NCBI RefSeq assembly: GCF_030028105.1
Contig: NC_092380.1
Coordinates: forward strand, 69,871,717 to 69,935,716
Reading direction: 5' to 3'
DNA: 64,000 bases
Source of the DNA: Mobula birostris
Lineage: Eukaryota
Shown: piece after piece, positions 1,121-50,319 of the stretch
Layout of the letters: each line of letters starts with the position of its first letter
How positions within the stretch are numbered: position 1 is the stretch's first letter
Program-made: the position numbers and the translations under genes
Notes under the pieces: model-generated
The model's database searches: none
The model's input: the letters and a program-made list of their open reading frames with translations, nothing else
Told to the model about the DNA's origin: nothing

Positions 1121-3494
1121 ACAGAACTTGTTTCTGATCTTAAGATTACATCTTTTTGTCTGAAGTGTTCTCACTAGAAGGACAGCTGGAACCATTTTCT
1201 TTTCAAAGTTGCCTTAGGCTAAGGCACTGAAGCAATTCTATCACTGCGAAAGTTTAGGAGGAAATTTAACATTGATCCATCTGATATCTCTTCTTAATTC
1301 CCTTGATGTAACTTTAAATTGAACATTTGAATCCCTTCAAGAATCCACCTTTGAATTTTCCTGATTTGTTTCACTCAATGTTGTACTAACTTGATTATGC
1401 ACAGTTCACTACTATATCAGGAGAGTTATAGGAACCCAAGTCAAATAGAATTATTTATATAATTATCTTGCTTATTAAACAGTCAGAATGTAGATTGGCA
1501 TGACTCTTACATAGCCAAATAATTCATTGCTTTAAAAATAAAGTGTAACAAAGTCTAGCCTCTTCAAATTGACACCAAGCATCAACAGCTTGCTTCATCT
1601 GGTGAAAGTCATGACTTGTAACATGATAATCCTTCTGACAAGCAATATGAATATAATTTCCAGTGCAGCCTACTTCAAGTGAGAAAAGTCATGCCTATTG
1701 TTTATCAATTTAAAGTTTGCATGGTTGCTAAGTGCACTTGAAGTACAGGAACACCATGATCATATTTAATAGCAAAGCAGGCTCAAAAAATCTTGTAATC
1801 TATTGTTGCTTATGGTATGAAAATATCAAAAAGTAATTGTTCAGTATTGTGTCTGTACCTGTGTCTGGGTGAGTCAGAGAAAGAGAGGGGAACAAAGAGT
1901 GTTAGGTGGGGAGACGGTGGCTGACGGTGGTACTGTGATAAGAAGCAAAATTGTGATGTGGATGTGAACAGAAACTGATAAAGGTAGATCCTGTGGATCA
2001 GGTAGGATCTTAGTCAGGTTCCACAAGCAAAAATTTCACAGAATTCTTGGTACTGTGCAGCATCAGCTGGTGGAATGCCATGGTAGATCCACCAATTAAA
2101 GTCTGTCAGTAGATCTAGGATTTAGGCATTTGATGCAAGGCTATGGAATGGGAACAAATGATGGGATCAGTATAGCATCATTTTAGCAAGGAGCCACAGA
2201 TATTGGATTGAACAACAGTTTCTGAACTGTAAACCTTCACTGTTCATGATCATTTCCATTTCCTTTTTCCATAGCTGCATCTATGACAAATCACTGAGTG
2301 TCCAGGCATTTCAGTTCAGAAGGCAACTGTTGCTAATTGCCAACAGTTTCACCCTCAATGTCTTCAATCCAGGCAGTACTTGTACTGCCAGCAATCTGAA
2401 AAAGCTGTCTTGAGTGGAAAATACCAAAAAGTGATCATGTTCCTCATTCTGGTCATCTAAGGGAATATCCTTCAGAATGAAGCATGAACCTAGGACTCAA
2501 ATGAAACCTTATGTAAACTGATCAATATGAATTGTCTCCAGACACAAATTTATTCTTTGTATCCTCCTTATTTCAGTCCCAAATGGCTTATTCCTTTTCC
2601 TCAGACTGTATGTGCTTCATGTGAAAGCATGGCTTTGCTTGCTTACATGCTACGTGTGTGCATGATTTTGCCATCAGCAGGTCGCCCATGTTACCCTACC
2701 TGCTGCCTCAGTTAGTGATGGTAGTTGAACAGCCATAGAATAATGGCACAATGATTGTTGATAAGATACTGAGATAGTGGAATACTTGTTATTTATATGA
2801 AAAGTAAATGATCATAGTCTGCAATAGAGGAGTGAGGGAGGTTGGGGAAGAGCAGTCATCTAATCTGAGTAAATATGCAAAAGAAGTTGAGGGTGTGGAC
2901 ACAAGCTGGTAAAAGTACTGATGTAGTTAATATCATCATAAAGAAATGAACAAAGCACTAAATTATTTTTCAGGAGTGTCAGAATTGAAAAGCAGAAAAT
3001 TCTGTCTTGAAAATAGAACAGTGGGCAGTTCTGATCATCAAATCCTAAAAAAAGGGCAGATTTACTGAAGAAGTTAACATTTCCATTAATGTTATCAGAA
3101 TGAAAGATTCAACAGACTAGGCCAGATCTTTCTGGTTATGGCAGGCTTTAATGGAGCAGATATAGAGAAGATGATCCTGTCTAAAGTTGCAAGAATGGAA
3201 TGACTTTTGGAGGTTGAATAGATTGCATTGATGTGACTCTGGCATGCTTAGCTCTACCAATTAGGGGTGAATTTCAAGGTAGATGCTTCCAACTATTGTG
3301 AAAGACCAGAACCAGGAGCCATAAATATCCAATACTCAGGATCTTTTCACCAAATATGATGAAAATATCAGTTATGAAATGTCATATTAATACCAGAGAT
3401 GAGAGCGTTTATTTATTTTGCAAGGTGATACAGCACATAGAAAGCATCTTTAAAACATCAGGGATCCATGGATAATACTGACCTCAGAAGCTCA

Positions 3495-3600
3495 TGTGTG
3501 GAGTTTACATCTTCTATGTTAACTTGTGGGATTCTCCTCTGCGCTCTGATTTCTTCCCACGTCCCCAAGGTTAGTTGACCCCTGTAAATCACCTAGGAGC
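3495..3600 (+). mobile_element. Degenerate V-SINE fragment
   Basis: gtgtggagtttacatcttct...gtgggattctcctctgcgctctgatttcttcccacgtccccaa resembles the V-domain core seen at 7345-7420. Confidence 0.5.
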
Positions 3601-7543: not shown

Positions 7544-8319
7544 ACCATTCATAAAAGAGATCATTTCCACCTTACTGGCTGCATGAAACAGTTCACCTTT
7601 CAAATATTCTCACTGGAGCATGCGAGCACCACACATTATTAGTAACGGTTCATAAAAATGTCAGTCAATTATTTGAATCACCGCAATATTCATTCACTGA
7701 CTGTTTTAAAAGACTATGTTTTGTTCATATTCACTAACAAGTCACAATGAAACTATCATTGCTGCCTTAACAAAAATAGTCCCATTGTTTTGCTACCACG
7801 CTGTTCTAAGAGTACCTGAGTGACCAACAATTCTCATATTCCTTATGCACTTAAATAAATTTCATTGTTGGTTTTAGAAAATTAGAATTTGTCACTGCTG
7901 TCTTATAGGGGGCAAATTACAGTTTCCCACAACAACAAGTTTTACTTCCAATGACATCTTGAGTGGTGACTTAATTACTTTTCTCTTTAAATATAAACAG
8001 AACTTTCTGTTATTTGACTGCTAATTAAAAACACCTTATAAGGCAGCTTGCCGATCAGTTAAACTAGACTCTGTGAAATTCAGTTTCCTTTTGACTTTAA
8101 CTTTTGGTTATGTACAACAAATGAATCTCAGACACCCAGTTATTTATAATTAAAATCCTGTTGGAATAAGGTAATTTGTCAATTCTTCTATAACTACCAG
8201 TTTCAAAGTCCAGCATTCTTTGTGACAGTCTGTATCAAAGTCCCTCCTAAAGTAAGAGAATAGATATCCACAACATGTTGGAGGAACTCAGCAGGTCGGG
8301 CAGCACCCGTGGAAACTAT

Positions 8320-8357
8320 GAGTCGACGTTTCAGGCCGGAACCCTTCATCAGGACTG
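8320..8357 (-). ncRNA. Minimal type I hammerhead ribozyme motif (Penelope pLTR)
   Basis: Minus strand reads CAGTC CTGATGA A GGGT TCCG GCCT GAAAC GTC GACTC. Confidence 0.7.
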
Positions 8358-8470
8358 TAGGGGGAAGGGGCAGAGGCCCTATAAAGAAGGTGGGGGGAGG
8401 GTGGGAAAGAGAAGCCTGGTAGGTTCCAGGTGAAATACCAGCAAGGGGAAAGACAAAGGGGTGGGGGAGG

Positions 8471-9607
8471 AGTCCCAGCTATGCTTGCCTCTTTGTTGGT
8501 TATGTGGAACAGTCTGTGCTCCAAACCTATTCTGGTACTGTTCCCCAACTCTTCCTTCGGTAGATTGATGACTACATTGGTGCTGCTTCTTGCACCCACG
8601 CTGAGCTCGTCAATTTCATCGACTTTACTTCAAATTTTCACCCAACCCTCAAATACACTTGGTCTATCTTGGACACTTCTCTCCCCTTTCTCGATCTCTC
8701 GGTCTCCATCTCTAGAGACAGACTGTCCACTGACACCTTCTACAAGCCCACTGACTCTCATAACTACCTCAACTATACTTCTTCCCACCCTGCCACATGC
8801 AAAAATGCCGTTCCCTATGCCCAGTTCCTCTGTCTCCGCCACATCTGCTCCCAGGATGAGGCTTTCCGTTCCAGGACATCTCAAATGTCCTCTTTCTTTA
8901 AAGATCGTGGTTTTCCATCTACCGTCATCAATGATGCCCTCACCCGCATCTCCTCCATTTCCCGCACTTCGGCCCTCACCCCATCCTCCCGCCACCACAA
9001 CAGGGACAGAGTTCCCCTTGTCCTCACCTACCACCCCACCAGCCTTCGGATCCAGCATATTATCCTCCGCAACTTGCGCCACCTTCAACAGGACCCTACC
9101 TCTAAGCACATCTTTCCCTCTCCACCCCTCTCCGCTTTCCGCAGGGATCAGTCCATCCACGACTCCCTTAGCCACACGTCCATTCCCACTGATCTCCCAC
9201 CTGGCACTTATCCCTGTAAGCCTAAGTGCTACACCCGTCCCTACACCTCCTCTCTTGCCATCATTCAGGGCCCCAAACAGTCCTTCCAGGTGAGGCAACA
9301 CTTCACTTGTGAGTCTGTTGTGGTCATCTATTGCATCCGGTGCGGCCTCCTCTACATCGGTGAAACTCGACGGACATTGGGGGACCGCTTCATTGAGCAC
9401 CTCCGCTCCGTCCGCCACAACAGACAGGATCTCCCAGTAGCCACCCACTTCAACTCTGCTTCCCACTCCCATTCAGATATGTCCATACATGGCCTCCTCT
9501 ACTGCCATGATGAGGCTAAACTCAGGTTGGAGGAGCAACACCTCATATACCGTCTAGGTAGTCTCCAGCCCCTTGGTATGAACGTAGAATTCTCCAACTT
9601 CTGGTAA
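8471..9607 (+). pseudogene. Penelope RT / GIY-YIG endonuclease remnant
   Basis: PSYACLFVGYVE; FLR*IDDYIG (catalytic YIDD Tyr replaced by TAG at 8561); LPFLDL; YKPTDSHNYL; Cys linker YPCKPKC; VIYCIRCGLLYIGETRRTLGDRFIEH; GMN terminus. Confidence 0.9.
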
Positions 9608-9879
9608 TTTCCCCCCCCCCCCCCCCCCGCTTCCTCTATCTCTATTTCACTCTGCCCCCTCCCCCAGCTGCCTATCACCTCCCTCATGGTTCCACCTCCT
9701 TCTACTACCCATTGTGTTTTCCCCTATTCTTTCTCCACCTTTCCTGCCTATCACCTCCCTGCATCCCCTCCCCCACCCTTTGTCTTTCCCCTTACTGGTT
9801 TTTCACCTGGGACCTACCAGGCTTCTCCTTCCCACCCTCCCCCCCACCTTCTTTATAGGGCCTTTGCCCCTTCCCTCTA

Positions 9880-9917
9880 CTGTCCTGACGAAGGGTTCCG
9901 GCCCGAAACGTCGACTG
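9880..9917 (+). ncRNA. Minimal type I hammerhead ribozyme motif (Penelope pLTR)
   Basis: CTGTC CTGACGA A GGGT TCCG GCCC GAAAC GTC GACTG: core boxes CUGANGA and GAAA, helix II with a UNCG loop, GUC cleavage triplet. Confidence 0.75.
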
Positions 9918-10737
9918 ATCGTTCCCACAGATGCTGCCCGACCCGCTGAGTTCCTCCAGCGTGTTGTGAGTGTTGCTTTGATCCCAGCATCTGCAGATTA
10001 TTTTGTGTTTAAGAGAATAGATATAATTTTTATAACCATTTCAGGTCATGTTAAAATGAGTAAGGGTATGATGAATATCGTTTTCTATTTCTAAGTTCTC
10101 TTATTATTTTTTTCATACTGATTGATTTCTGTAGAGTTTGCAGGTGACTGTGGGTGAAAGGAGATTAACAAGATGTTTTCACATCTCTGTAACCCATACT
10201 TCGTAAGATATTCAAGGATGTTTCAAATTAGCAATTATTTTTGTGTGAGTAATTATTTTAAATGACTTACAACCCTTGATCAGGATTGTTCATCTACAAA
10301 CAAATTGCATTCAGTGATCTGTAGTGTTACTTATTCATGAATCATTACAGTTACATAAAATCTGGTGTTTATGTCCAATAAGTGGTTGTGACTTATACAA
10401 TAGTGAGTCACAACATTAGCTACGGCTGCATTCGACCCCACCACATTGCCTCAGATGCTGAAACTAAGCCCTTGTCAGACTAATGCTTTACCGATGTTGA
10501 AATTTTTGCTCGAATCTTCCTTCACCCCACCCCTGAAGATGTTAGCTACTGGACATAAATGCTGACTCCCCATACCTGACCCACTCTGCTGAATTAAAAT
10601 TTCAAATAAGGGGCAAGAAGAGAGATATAGCTCTGGTGTGGGAGAGAAAATGGAGGGAAGATGAGGGACTTGTGACAAGTATTGTGCTTGTGAGAGTGGG
10701 AGGAAGGGATGAAAGGTGAGAAAGGGAGAACTTGAAA

Positions 10738-10941
10738 ATCTCTCTCTCACTTTCACCCCTTCTCCCTCTCTCCCTCTCTCTCCCACACTCGCCCTGTCTC
10801 TCTCCCACGCTCGCCCTCTCTCTCTCCTCCTCTCTAACACTCACCTCCTCTCTGACACTCACCTCCTCTCTCACTGTTACCCTCTCCCTCACCCACCCTC
10901 TCCCTCCCCCTCCCTCCCTCACACACACACTCTCCCACACA

Positions 10942-24415: not shown

Positions 24416-24797
24416 CCGGTCCTGATGAAGGGTCTCGGCCTGAAACATCAACTGTACTCTTTTCCATAGAAGCACACATCAAAGTTGCTGGTGAACGCAG
24501 CAGGCCAGGCAGCATCTCTTGGAAGAGGTACAGTCGACGTTTCGGGCCGAGACATTTCTTCAGGACCTTCCTGACGAAGGGTCTCAGCCCAAAACATCGA
24601 CTGTCCTCTTCCTAGAGATGCTGCCTGGCCTGCTGCGTTCACCAGCAACTTTAATGTGTGCTGCCTGAATTTCCAGCATCTGCAGAATTCCTTGTGTTTG
24701 CGTCTTTTCCATAGATGCTGCCTAACCTGCTGACTTCCTCCAGCATTTTGTGTGTGTTGTTTCGATTTACAGCATCTGCAGATTTTCTCTTGTTTGC
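24416..24797 (+). mobile_element. Penelope pLTR fragment with a palindromic Penelope mini-element (24471-24702) nested inside
   Basis: 13-bp TSD tcttttccataga (24458-24470 / 24703-24715). The insert has ~95-bp inverted arms and a ~40-nt tail. Three hammerhead-like motifs. Confidence 0.88.
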
Positions 24798-36136: not shown

Positions 36137-36309
36137 ATATACACAATGAGTTGGCCTCTACAGCTTTCTGGCAATGAATTCCACAGTTTCACCACCCATG
36201 GCTCAAGAAATTCTTCCCCATCTCTGTTCTAAAGGGATGTCTTTTTTATTCTGAGGCTGTGCCCTCTGGTCCTAGGCTCTCCCACTACTGGAATCATCCT
36301 TTCCATGTC

Positions 36310-36527
36310 AACACTCACAACACGCTAGAGGAACTCAGCAGGTCGGGCAGCATCCGTGAAAGCAATCAGTCAATGTTTTGGGCCGGAACCCTGACAAAGG
36401 GTTCCGTCAGGGTTCCGGCCCGAAACGTCGACTGATTGTTTCCACGGATGCTGCCCGACCTGCTGAGTTCCTCCAGCGTGTTGTGAGTGTTGCTTTCACC
36501 CCAGCATCTGCAGATTATTTTGTGTTT
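36310..36527 (+). mobile_element. Palindromic Penelope mini-element
   Basis: ~85-bp inverted arms and a tail nearly identical to the 3' end of 8268-10010. 17-bp TSD with 2 mismatches (36293-36309 / 36528-36544). Confidence 0.88.
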
Positions 36528-36930
36528 ATTATCCTCTCCATGTCCATTTATCTAGGAATTTGAATATTCAGTAGGTTTCAATGAGAAGCTCCTTGTTCTT
36601 CTAAACCGTGATTACAAGCCAAGCCTTCAAACACTCCACATGCATTAACTCTTTCATCCCCAGATAGCTCTTGTAAACCTCCTCTGGGCCTTCTTTAATA
36701 CCAGCGTATCCTCTCCTTTTATATTGGGCACAAAACTGCTTACAGTACTCCGTGTGTTCTGAGCAATGCCTTAAAAAGCCTCAGCATTATATCCTTCCTT
36801 TTATATTCTAATACTCTCAAAATGAATGCTAACATTGCATTTGTCCAACTCAACCTGTAAGTTGATATTTAGGGATCCTGTACTAGGATTCCCAAGTCCA
36901 CTGGCAATTTCAGAAATCTCCCCCTATTTC

Positions 36931-46299: not shown

Positions 46300-48618
46300 G
46301 TGAGTATTGCTTCACAAAATAATAACCCTGGAATAATTATTGGGTAAACCAATAATGTTCATTGGAATTAATTTGGTTCCTTTTGATCTCTTTAACACTC
46401 AAATATGCTACATTTCTCAATCAGGTGGACAAACATGTGACTTGCTCCCAGAGTTACATCATTGTTCTTAATGGATAGAGTACATGTGTGCTGCACAAAT
46501 TAGTCTTACTGCCAGTTCAAACATTATGACAAAAACATCTTCTAATTTCTGCTTTCCTCCTAATGATCCAAGCTCAAGTGGAATTTTTTTTTGTTGCAGC
46601 CAACTGGCTTGAGCTGTCCTAGTGTGTGACAAAATGATAGTGCGATAAACTCTCCTTATCTATAAATTGTGAGTTCATCTGAATAGATGTTCAAGACTGC
46701 GTGCATTATAGAGAATATTAGGATTTCATGGGTTATTGGGCCCTAACTGATTAAGACTTACATCAATGGAAAATTTGGAAAATGCTTTTCTAAATTTACA
46801 AATTTAGAAAATGTTTAAAAATGATTAAGTATGAGGAAGGTGCAATGTTCATGTGGTATGGGACCATAAAACATAGGAGCAGAATTAGGCCACTCAGCCC
46901 ATTGACTCTCCTTTGCAATTCCATCATGGCTGATGTATTATCCACCTCAACCCCATTCTCCTGTTGTCTCTCCATAACTTTTGATGTCCTGACTAACCAA
47001 GGACATATAAACATACTCAATGACTTGGCCCCCACAGCTATCCGTGGCATTGAATTCCAGAGGTTCATCACCATCTGGCTAAAAAAAAAAAATTCCTTCT
47101 CACCTCTGATGGATGTCTCTCTATTCTGAGGCTGCACCCTCTGATCTTAGCCTTCCCCGCTGTAGGAAGCATCCTCTCCACGTCCACTTTATCCAGACCT
47201 TGCAATATTCAATAGGCTGCAATGAGAACTCCAGCGAGTACAGGCCAGAGCCATCAAATGCTCCTCATAAGTTAGCCATGTCATTCCCAATATCATTATC
47301 AAGAAATGCCCTCGGATCCTCTCCAATGCCTGCACATCTTTTCCGAGACAAGGAGTTCAATACTGCTCACGATACTCCGAGTGAGGTCTGACCAATGCCT
47401 TAAAAAAGCCTCAGCATCACATCGTTGCTCTTATATTCTAGCCATTTCAAAATGAACGCTAAATTTGCATTTGCATCCTTACCTCTGACTCAATCTGAAA
47501 GTTAATATTTAGAGAATCCTACACAAGGACTTCCAAGTCCTTTTGCACCTCAGATTTTTGAATTTTCTTCCCATTTAGAAAATAGTGCATGCCTTTATTC
47601 CTTCTACCAAAGTGCATGACCTCACGCTTCCCTACACTATATTTCACCTGCCACTTCTTTGCCCATTCTCCCAATCCAACCAAATTCTCCGTCAGACACC
47701 CTGACCCTCCACCCCTCTTTGTATCTTTGTATCATCTGCAAACTTGGCCACAAAACCATCAATTCCATCATCCAACTTAATGACATATTATGTGAAAAGA
47801 AGCGGTCTCAATACCAACTCCTGCGGAACACCACTTGTCGCTGGTAGCCAACTAGAAAACGCCCCCTTTATTCCCACTTTATGCCTCCTGCCAGTAAGGC
47901 AATCTCCTAACCATGCTGGTATCTTCACTGTAAAAATACGGGCTTGTATCTTGTCAAGCAGCTTCATGGGCAGCACCTTGTCAAAGTCCTTCTGAAAATA
48001 TAAGTACACAACATCCACTGACTCTCCTTTGTCTGTCTTGCCTATTATTTCTTCAAATAACTCCTACAGGTTTGTCAGACAAGATTTCCCCAAGGAAACC
48101 TTACTGACTTTGGCCTTCTTTATCCTGCCCCTCCAAGTACCCGAAACCTCATCTACAACTTCCCAATCACTGAAGTCAGGTTAACTGGCCTGTACAGTAG
48201 TTTACTTTCTTCTGCCTGCCTCCCTTCTTACAGAGTGGAGTGATATTTGCAATTTTCCAGTCTTCCGAAACCATTCCAGAATCTAGTGATCCTTGAAAGA
48301 TCATTTCTAATGCCTACAATCTCTTCGGCTACATCTATCAGAACACCAAGGTGTAGTCCATCAGGGCCAGGTAACTTATCTACCTCTAGACCTTACAGCT
48401 TCACAAGCACCTTTAACTTAGTAGTAGCAACTACACTCACTTCAGCCCCCTGACACTCTCGCCCACTCTCGAGTGTCTGGCGCAATGCTAGTGTCTTCCA
48501 CAGTGAAGACAGACACAAAATACTTATTAAATTCATCCACCATTTCCTTGTCCCCCATTACTACTTTCCAGTGTCATTTTCCAGCATTCTGATATCCACT
48601 CTCACCTCTCTTGTATTC

Positions 48619-48998
48619 TTTCCAGCATCTGCAGAATTCCTGTTGTTTGCATTTTAAAATTCACTACTGCGAAGCCTCTTCCGGTGATGCCTACACCGAA
48701 GAAGTTTAGATCCTCTCTTCAACGGGAGCTCAGTGAAACCATCTCTCACTGCTCCCCATCTGTAATTTCTTCGGCTCTTCAACTTTTCGACCACATTTTG
48801 ATCATATTGGATCTCCGCCTCCCCCTCCCACTTTCAAATCTCTTACTAACTCTTCTTTCAGTTAGTCCTGACGAAGGGTCTCGGCCTGAAACGTCGACTG
48901 TACCTCTTCCTAGAGATGCTGCCTGGCCTGCTGCGTTCAACAGCAACTTTGATGTGTGTTGCTTGAATTTCCAGCATCTGCAGAATTCCTGTTGTTTG
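48619..48998 (+). mobile_element. Non-autonomous Penelope-derived / retrozyme-like insertion with terminal direct repeats
   Basis: 31-bp perfect direct repeat tttccagcatctgcagaattcctgttgtttg (48619-48649 / 48968-48998). Flanking duplication ttgtattctt (48611-48620 / 48996-49005). Confidence 0.85.
48863..48900 (+). ncRNA. Minimal type I hammerhead ribozyme motif
   Basis: TAGTC CTGACGA A GGGT CTCG GCCT GAAAC GTC GACTG. Confidence 0.75.
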
Positions 48999-50319
48999 TA
49001 TTCTTCGTATGTCTGAAAAAAACTCTTGGTATTGTTTTTGATATTTTGTCTTTTCTCTCATTATGTTTGTTTTTAACTTGCCTTCTGTTGGTTTTTAAAA
49101 ACTTCCTAATCCTCTACCTTCCCACTAATTTTTGCTATATTATTTGCCCTCTCTTTTACTTGAATGCTGTCTATGACTTCCCTCGTCAACTACAGTAGCC
49201 TCATCCTCCCTTTAGAATACTACATCATTTTGGAACGTGTTGATCCTGCACTTTCTGAATTGCTCCGCAGAAACTCCAGCCATTTTGTTCTCTTGTCATC
49301 TTTGCTAGTGTCCCCTTCCAATCAACTTTGGCCAGCTCCTCGCTCGTACTTCTTTAATTCCTTTTACTCCACTGTAATACTGATACAACTGACCTTGTCT
49401 TCTGCCTCTCAAACTCCAGGGTGAATTCTATCATTTAAAACCACTGCCTACCAGGGGTTCCTTACTTTAAGCTCCCTAATCAAATCTGGTACATTGCACA
49501 GTACCCAATCCAGAATTGCCTTTCTCCGAGTGGGCTTAACTATAAGCTGCTCTAAAAAGCCACCTTGATGCATTCCACAAATTCCTTCTCTAGGGATCTA
49601 GCACCAACCTGATTTTCCCAACTCACCTCCATATTGAAATCCCTCATGAATAACATAATATTGCCCTTATTACATGACTTTCTATTTGTAATTGTAATTT
49701 ATAGCCTATATCCTGGCTACTGTTTGGGGGCCTGTATATAACTCCCATCAGGGTCTTTTTGTCCTTGTAGTTTCTTAACTTTACCCACAAGGATTCTTCA
49801 TCTTCTGATCCTTTGTCACCTCTTTCATTTTTTACCAACAGAGCCACCCTACCCCCTCTGTCTGTCCTTTCAATACAAGTTATGTCCTTGGATGTTAAAC
49901 TTCCAACTGTGATCTTCTTTCAACCACATTTCAGTAAAGCCCACAACATCATAAGTGCCAATCTCTAGCTGCGCTACACGATCATCTGTCTTATTCGATA
50001 TACTGTGTGCATTTAAGTATCCATATACTGTGTGCATTCAAATACAACACCTTCGGTCCTTTATTCATCACCCTTTTCGATTTTGCCCCCATGTTACATT
50101 TCACTTCATCCCACTGAAAACAATTTTCCCCTATCATCTTCCTGTCCTACCATGTGTAGTAGCATCCATAATTCTTTCCATAGGATGTCATGGAGTTAAG
50201 GCATCATATAGGACAGAAACAGGTTTTTCAGCCAAACATGAAGCACCTTTCTACACTGCACCAGTCCCATTTTACTCCTTCCACATCCTCAAAAACCTCC
50301 CATAAATTCTATCACTCAA

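Follow-up and report, generated by a model that had tools for sequence, protein, structure and literature searches.

Miniature Penelope derivatives with private internal joints in Mobula birostris, reached from a 349-nt hammerhead-bearing insert

About half of the sampled copies of a Penelope element that retain its 5′ end in the genome of Mobula birostris are miniatures made of the two ends of the element, mostly with a joint of their own. We came to this class, in which the value of the present work lies, from one small insert in a window of 64,000 nt (the whole stretch of DNA analysed: NCBI RefSeq assembly GCF_030028105.1, contig NC_092380.1, positions 69,871,717 to 69,935,716, forward strand). 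The reading we favor for the insert, to which we give slightly better than an even chance, is that the parent's reverse transcriptase (RT) jumped end-to-end on a short linear fragment of Penelope RNA; everything we say about mechanism is read from genomic fossils. The insert and related features are given below in window coordinates, and parent coordinates are those of a natural copy, L066.

8269..10011, plus strand: the 1.74-kb Penelope cited by the earlier note; 5′-truncated, of a related family, not the parent
46955..48610, resuming at 49006, minus strand: old LINE hosting the insertion, with RT-like frames
48611..48620, plus strand: left copy of the target duplication; its last 2 nt overlap the 5′ end of the element
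48619..48649, plus strand: upstream partial repeat of 31 bp (parent 3491-3521), the putative start of a second pass over the template
48650..48801, plus strand: parent 5′ end (1-150), with 5′ UTR and ORF start; 97% identity to L066
48687..48801, plus strand: first 38 codons of the parent's 1015-aa RT/endonuclease ORF, from the ATG at 48687
48801, plus strand: internal joint, parent 150>3324, with microhomology of 1 nt and the parent lacking 3.17 kb
48801..48998, plus strand: parent 3′ end (3324-3521), with 3′ UTR, hammerhead, pLTR and tail; 95% identity to L066
48863..48900, plus strand: minimal hammerhead of type I that lacks a stable stem III (hand-set pattern; type according to the accessible text of PMC4209133); predicted cut 48895/48896
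48968..48998, plus strand: second (3′) copy of the 31-bp repeat; its end, parent 3521, is one of the two preferred 3′ ends of the family
48996..49005, plus strand: right copy of the target duplication; its first 3 nt overlap the 3′ end of the element

The terminal redundancy described in the earlier note (31 bp, period 349) is exact, since the direct repeats at 48619-48649 and 48968-48998 are identical at 31/31 positions with a spacing of 349. In parent coordinates the insert reads 3491-3521, 1-150 and 3324-3521, i.e. 1.09 units with one hammerhead, and it differs from the majority of miniatures at 8/346 positions. The proposed 10-bp target duplication is also present (TTGTATTCTT at 48611-48620 and 48996-49005, with an unambiguous part of 5 bp), and it is real because a single, uninterrupted copy of the target is found at 14/14 paralogous loci of the flanking LINE examined. 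We take this host LINE (46955-48610) to be a CR1. The statement that the insert has no RT/EN coding sequence holds in a narrow sense only, as 48687-48801 is the start of the parent ORF. Taken alone, the window locus is likely inert, an ordinary dead-end Penelope derivative; it sits downstream of an ABCC8-like exon, some 22 kb away.

The parent was reached by searching the species' own genome with 48652-48800 and then with longer surrounding sequences. It is a 3,521-bp unit with a single 1015-aa ORF, whose ATG corresponds to window 48687. The suspected involvement of Penelope machinery is supported. A YIDD motif is found in 12/14 motif matches, and a linker of the form CX2-5CxxC (CKRNKCYTC or variants) in 21 matches. 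Pfam reports RVT_1 (E 0.003) and GIY-YIG (E 0.0009) on the ORF, both under the curated cut-offs, and a comparison of the ORF with PDB gave no match. The single ORF with RT and C-terminal GIY-YIG is the layout of EN+ Penelope-like elements (PLEs), and partial tandem pLTRs, inverted 5′ arms and a 30-40-bp tail are present as well. The CX2-5CxxC linker between RT and EN marks Neptune/Nematis in the accessible text of PMC8557442, and by its predicted linker we class the parent as a Neptune-type Penelope. The family resembles Neptune and Nematis, as far as the accessible parts of PMC8557442 and PMC11167929 describe them, in its RT, linker, C-terminal GIY-YIG, partial tandems, inverted 5′ arms, hammerhead in the pLTR and two 3′ ends separated by about 35 nt (85/199 family 3′ ends fall at 3481-3495 and 91/199 at 3513-3521); it differs from the EN+ PLEs described there in that about half of its 5′-bearing copies are miniatures, with joints that are clustered but private. 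It is true, as the earlier note held, that 48650-48860 is missing from the 1.74-kb Penelope copy; that copy, however, is a 5′-truncated member of another family (76% identical to the parent across 1929-3102), which is why the parent was missed.

We define a miniature as a copy of at most 700 nt, with X as the last position of the 5′ segment and Y as the first position of the 3′ segment at the joint. In a first search (best 40 of 3,629 candidates), units of about 350 nt were many, and the joints differed among the 30 loci compared, whereas the earlier note had looked to such a search for many ~349-bp copies sharing one junction. We then refer to a junction-blind sample, selected with the exact 24-mer at parent 91-114, to which any X below about 113 is invisible: of its 531 matches the first 100 were considered, and 90 of these, minus three duplicates, make 87 loci (six further ones among the 100, five miniatures and one full-length copy, were met through other searches and stand outside the 87). 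These 87 loci include 41 miniatures, 22 full-length copies, 15 long copies whose structure is not settled, 6 larger deletions and 3 others. By extrapolation, about 250 miniatures genome-wide carry the exact 24-mer, and the total is higher. The insert is hence not a one-off, and its junction is not unique to the locus, the condition under which the earlier note would have given up its case; the exact window joint occurs at two other loci, on another parent haplotype, and these differ from the window copy at the parent-polymorphic sites 3372 and 3410.

Pooling all searches, we found 63 different joints in 77 miniature loci, with X mostly at 130-180 and Y mostly at 3250-3335; miniatures measure about 220-640 nt. 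Two hammerheads in tandem are present in 22/77, and none of the miniature loci mapped holds an array of more than about 1.8 units. Microhomology of at least 1 nt is seen at 48 of the 62 flush joints (77%, against 51% expected), and 15/77 miniatures carry extra bases at the joint. Back-splicing was rejected (0/62 joints fit GT..AG), and so was premature polyadenylation: eight A's occur at a single joint (L073), with no AATAAA near it.

The partial repeats upstream of the 5′ segment tell whether the joint was already in the template. Our set comprises 63 cases (61 loci, two counted twice), junction-blind and BLAST-selected loci pooled. None of the 63 direct upstream repeats goes beyond Y into the parent by more than 10 nt (L045 is ambiguous at -7), and in full-length or long copies 12/26 partial repeats start upstream of 3250. 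Comparing only junction-blind miniatures, 0/22 pass their own Y versus 12/26 of the full-length or long copies (Fisher p = 1.5e-4). Fifteen upstream repeats reach Y, where six repeat the joint exactly and continue into the 5′ segment (L015, L025, L028, L036, L100 and L134) and nine stop within 2 nt. Nine stops compare with 0.56 expected from the stop rate elsewhere (p = 1e-8; 5/11 and p = 7e-5 without the class with Y near 3387), and they point to a physical RNA end. These results agree with the earlier proposal of reverse transcription slightly more than once around, in that a short template would already have held the joint and the upstream repeats never run through Y. Among inverted arms that reach Y, the joint is repeated in 9 loci, the arm stops in 3 and runs through in 3 (L003, L100, L149), and further arms of each kind exist, those that run through Y being at L126 and L185, so a second template can serve the other arm. 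At L017 an untemplated-looking AGA is present in both arms. That the 31-bp repeat falls inside the tail was set down as coincidence, as the upstream starts spread over 3260-3491. A tandem locus, L215, carries two joints that differ from each other; later mutation could account for this, and the locus is outside the counts.

As to the hammerhead, the single motif reported at 48863-48900 was recovered in its minimal form with a hand-set pattern: stem I UAGUC/GACUG, core CUGACGA (48868-48874), stem II AGG/CCU and GAAA (48888-48891), with a palindromic ACGU where stem III would be and a predicted cut after 48895. Rfam gave no hammerhead in either the whole window or 451 bp, and folding of the motif on its own yields another minimum-energy structure (z -0.2); a z of -3.8 for folding of the whole insert was set aside, since both copies of the terminal repeat and a hairpin inherited from the parent lie in the region. 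At 48887 the insert has T, the majority allele of the family (95 T, 34 C), and not a decayed base. According to the accessible text of PMC4209133, the minimal PLE hammerhead has no stem III, and its monomer showed no activity in the one test made there. The one-hammerhead window copy is likely a dead end. Judged by position, the hammerhead would not have made the window joint, which is parent 150>3324, whereas the cut is predicted at 3418; the hammerhead-closed circle of the earlier note is not supported.

The geometry of the miniatures is seen again, on a smaller scale, in hammerhead-sized repeats (135 pattern matches, the first 100 hand-classed into 80 loci). Their joints lie at 3417-3418, i.e. 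at the predicted cut, in 28 loci, with 6 ambiguous or adjacent; by the same hand classing 11 are at 3421, 1 at 3422, 19 at 3424-3426 and 15 at 3428-3441. The predicted cut is the sharpest peak, though others exist, and the pattern suggests hammerhead cleavage in vivo. We mapped 31 small-repeat loci (12 from a search minus one duplicate, plus 20 chosen, mostly with cut-site joints), and 0/31 extend more than 1 nt upstream of their own Y. Y is mostly at 3383-3388 in small repeats, and the preferred 5′ end of the family is at 3387 (1003 matches versus 176 at 3392; related families may swell the 1003). An untemplated G precedes Y in 19/27 small-repeat joints (hand count). An excess of G before Y is expected if the cap is copied. 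At plain 5′ ends the excess of G is weak (29/100 versus 5/46 in the control, hand counts), and the miniatures' own Y (mostly 3250-3335) lies away from the 3387 end. An apparent peak of 5′ ends at 3419, the hammerhead product, was rejected as evidence (182 versus 192 at 3423, about 1.5-fold after allowing for the patterns); many of the 5′ ends at 3419 are probably inversion joints through stem I.

In the end-to-end jump that we favor, the template would be an RNA fragment across the pLTR/ORF-start boundary, with its 5′ end at Y (3324) and its 3′ end at X (150); as a guess, trimming of the RNA to a protein-protected core might make these ends. The enzyme would initiate inside the fragment at 3521, run off the 5′ end Y, jump to the 3′ end X of the same RNA and copy back through position 1, and in the window the second pass would halt after 31 nt, leaving the terminal redundancy, with the hammerhead carried along uncut. 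Hundreds of such accidents, with differing ends, would give the miniature class, and the miniatures with two hammerheads (22/77) could be raw material for retrozymes. Several steps have counterparts in the accessible parts of published work: in vitro, the anole PLE initiates internally at two sites 30-40 nt apart, requires RNA downstream of the start, extends both target strands and uses uncut RNA as its main substrate (PMC11167929), and the R2 enzyme can jump templates (PMC8857657, PMC3414825). The two 3′-end clusters here match the two-site initiation of the anole PLE. Against jumping are the joints repeated identically within a locus, including the AGA of L017, for which a circle is simpler; the weak G excess at plain 5′ ends and a miniature Y that is not at 3387; the inverted arms that run through Y; and an excess of identical joints in our length-selected set (see below). 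The broader claim is that Penelope RT circles linear RNA scraps by end-to-end jumps in vivo, that this would yield partial tandem pLTRs, tiny hammerhead arrays (the hammerhead setting the matching RNA ends) and retrozyme-sized miniatures, and that there would have been hundreds of independent retrozyme births, none yet a family; we put it forward tentatively, at somewhat less than an even chance.

The main rival to jumping is a ligated RNA circle: short RNA fragments would be ligated into circles with private joints (again not at the hammerhead site) and copied slightly more than once. A proposal of circular templates for the partial tandems of PLEs dates from 2014 (PMC4209133, accessible text), and base-identical joints in 6/6 direct repeats and in most inverted arms reaching them, inserted bases included, are what a circle would give. 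We still regard it as unlikely, given that in 9/15 cases the second pass ends no more than 2 nt from the joint, which is unexpected unless the ligated bond stalls the enzyme, that RNA ligation leaves the microhomology excess unexplained, and that a capped 5′ end, itself a weak signal, could not be in a circle. Less probable again, and in our view decidedly so, is a Penelope RNA of full length, tandem or circular, in which a persistent block or nick at Y makes the enzyme skip the ORF at each encounter. Such a template would do without a special short RNA and would suit the microhomology excess and the clustering of X at 130-180 and of Y at 3250-3335, but it requires a different base-precise block for each molecule together with the same landing each time (6/6), full-length copies pass the region freely (12/26), and a block of this kind amounts to an RNA end.

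We consider very improbable the discrete 349-nt retrozyme family with one common junction that the earlier note had proposed, spreading from masters as a hammerhead-cut circular monomer RNA. It could draw on the many units of about 350 nt, on the window joint at two other loci, on the 22/77 miniatures with two hammerheads and on the length-selected set (27 loci), in which identical joints make 9 pairs against 2.0 expected (p = 0.002). A cruder permutation over all 77 loci likewise gives 19 identical-joint pairs versus 1.9. The junction-blind set (50 loci), however, has 2 pairs against 1.3 expected and thus no excess, loci with the same joint share private variants no more than other pairs do (0.74 vs 0.67), and the window copy is unlike its two same-joint loci at 3372 and 3410. 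The 63 joints in 77 loci, the spread of sizes (about 220-640 nt) and the lack of arrays above about 1.8 units in the mapped miniature loci also speak against such a family. Among recurrent joints, 4/10 were found on both parent subfamily backgrounds (by eye). Limited secondary spread of miniatures may have occurred, or unmodelled hot spots may be at work.

Loss of the middle of an inserted full-length Penelope by later microhomology-mediated DNA deletion, of a kind described for rotifer Penelopes in the accessible text of PMC3846280 and compatible with the 1-nt microhomology at the window joint, is highly improbable for the window locus and is ruled out for the miniature class by the bimodal sizes (41 miniatures versus 6 larger deletions in 87 loci), the joints repeated inside single insertions and the 0/63 upstream repeats that run through Y. 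The earlier alternative of an internally deleted Penelope with a partial tandem pLTR has the anatomy right, but the deletion appears to have arisen in the template and not after insertion.

With regard to retrozymes, the 349-nt unit falls within the size and hammerhead definition (type I, non-coding, about 150-450 nt) while keeping 38 codons. The window copy is short of the two or more successive units, each bearing a full hammerhead, that define an "active" retrozyme in the accessible part of the preprint by Li, Clavereau and Pollet (2026; 10.64898/2026.07.22.740005), and in place of one monomer with many copies from masters there are 63 joints in 77 loci. As far as that preprint is accessible, it reports PLE-derived retrozymes in one chondrichthyan (mean consensus 363 bp), proposes a PLE terminus as the origin of retrozymes and calls on unequal crossover for a local tandem expansion; our loci point instead to reverse transcription more than once around at insertion. 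Like the metazoan non-LTR retrozymes described in the accessible parts of PMC7229834 and the preprint, the miniatures are a few hundred nt long, carry a type I hammerhead, encode no intact protein and derive from PLE ends; unlike them they form no consensus family or long array, and they have their own joints, an ORF start and the minimal PLE hammerhead. By analogy, the insert would work like a non-LTR retrozyme precursor.

R2 SIDEs are likewise short, internally deleted and ribozyme-bearing (PMC3414825, accessible text), and template jumping with untemplated bases has been proposed as their origin (accessible parts of PMC3414825 and PMC8857657). Whereas those accounts describe few founders and then families, there are hundreds of independent events here, and the jump would wrap round an internal start site and so leave terminal redundancy.

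The bacterial defence reverse transcriptase DRT2 reportedly jumps again and again on an RNA that is not circular and so makes tandem cDNA. The likeness holds only if the jumping explanation does, and DRT2 makes a fixed, programmed jump on an unrelated RNA.

No account of miniatures formed independently and in mass, or of end-to-end jumping by a PLE, turned up in the openly accessible literature, although preprint supplements may list the family. Penelope-derived retrozymes have already been reported, including from a cartilaginous fish, and against the accessible parts of these reports it is the repeated birth in mass that may be new. Whether PLE copies longer than a unit come from a circle or a jump, and how animal retrozymes originate, are given as open questions in the accessible parts of PMC4209133, PMC7761336, PMC11167929 and 10.64898/2026.07.22.740005. 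Wrap-round copying of broken RNA is a likely way for hammerhead retrozyme repeats to arise. Hundreds of privately marked events let the enzyme's second pass be followed base by base, which makes the question of PLE copying testable from the genome together with the existing in vitro system. In assembled contigs of five runs, which are not on record as RNA, the parent family is present in other organisms too.

Among the loci of this Penelope family that were picked junction-blind, by an exact 24-mer at parent 91-114 (L128-L187), miniatures and full-length copies are dominated by opposite subfamilies of the parent: the miniatures comprise 17 B, 3 A and 6 mixed copies, and the full-length copies comprise 19 A, 2 B and 1 mixed. 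One full-length sub-lineage (L067, L068, L069, L074, L075 and others) carries an internal tandem duplication of 212 bp (parent 675-886), and this segment is present three times in L069.

We also observed a further class of deletions (L033, L041, L064, L073, L160, L164 and L179), in which a point in the ORF, anywhere in parent 145-1663, is fused to 3387-3388, i.e. the front edge of the hammerhead; the joint of L073 holds eight A's. A single miniature, whose 5' segment ends at parent 277 and is fused to a 3' segment starting at 3161, is found in three copies (L175, L176 and L177; C4:114572-370867) inside a segmental duplication close to one end of a contig.

At seven loci (L216, at G000:C9:21103500-21108500, L217, L218, L219, L220, L221 and L203), the hammerhead itself is repeated in tiny tandem arrays, with units of 28-58 nt and up to about 9 copies. 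In several of these arrays, the unit ends fall on or next to the predicted cut site of the hammerhead (parent 3418).

Other features of the window include an exon and further repeats, some of them from the same Penelope family:

10675-10789, hairpin with a weak Rfam score as a microRNA family; it is a low-complexity inverted repeat
24419-24797, compound insertion of direct and inverted pLTR stubs, among them pieces of the same Penelope family with 90% identity
25976-26131, + strand, exon from a gene resembling ABCC8 (SUR1); it matches ABCC8 chains with E 7e-26
36309-36528, hairpin with a weak Rfam score as a microRNA family; it consists of two Penelope pLTR stubs in inverted orientation to each other
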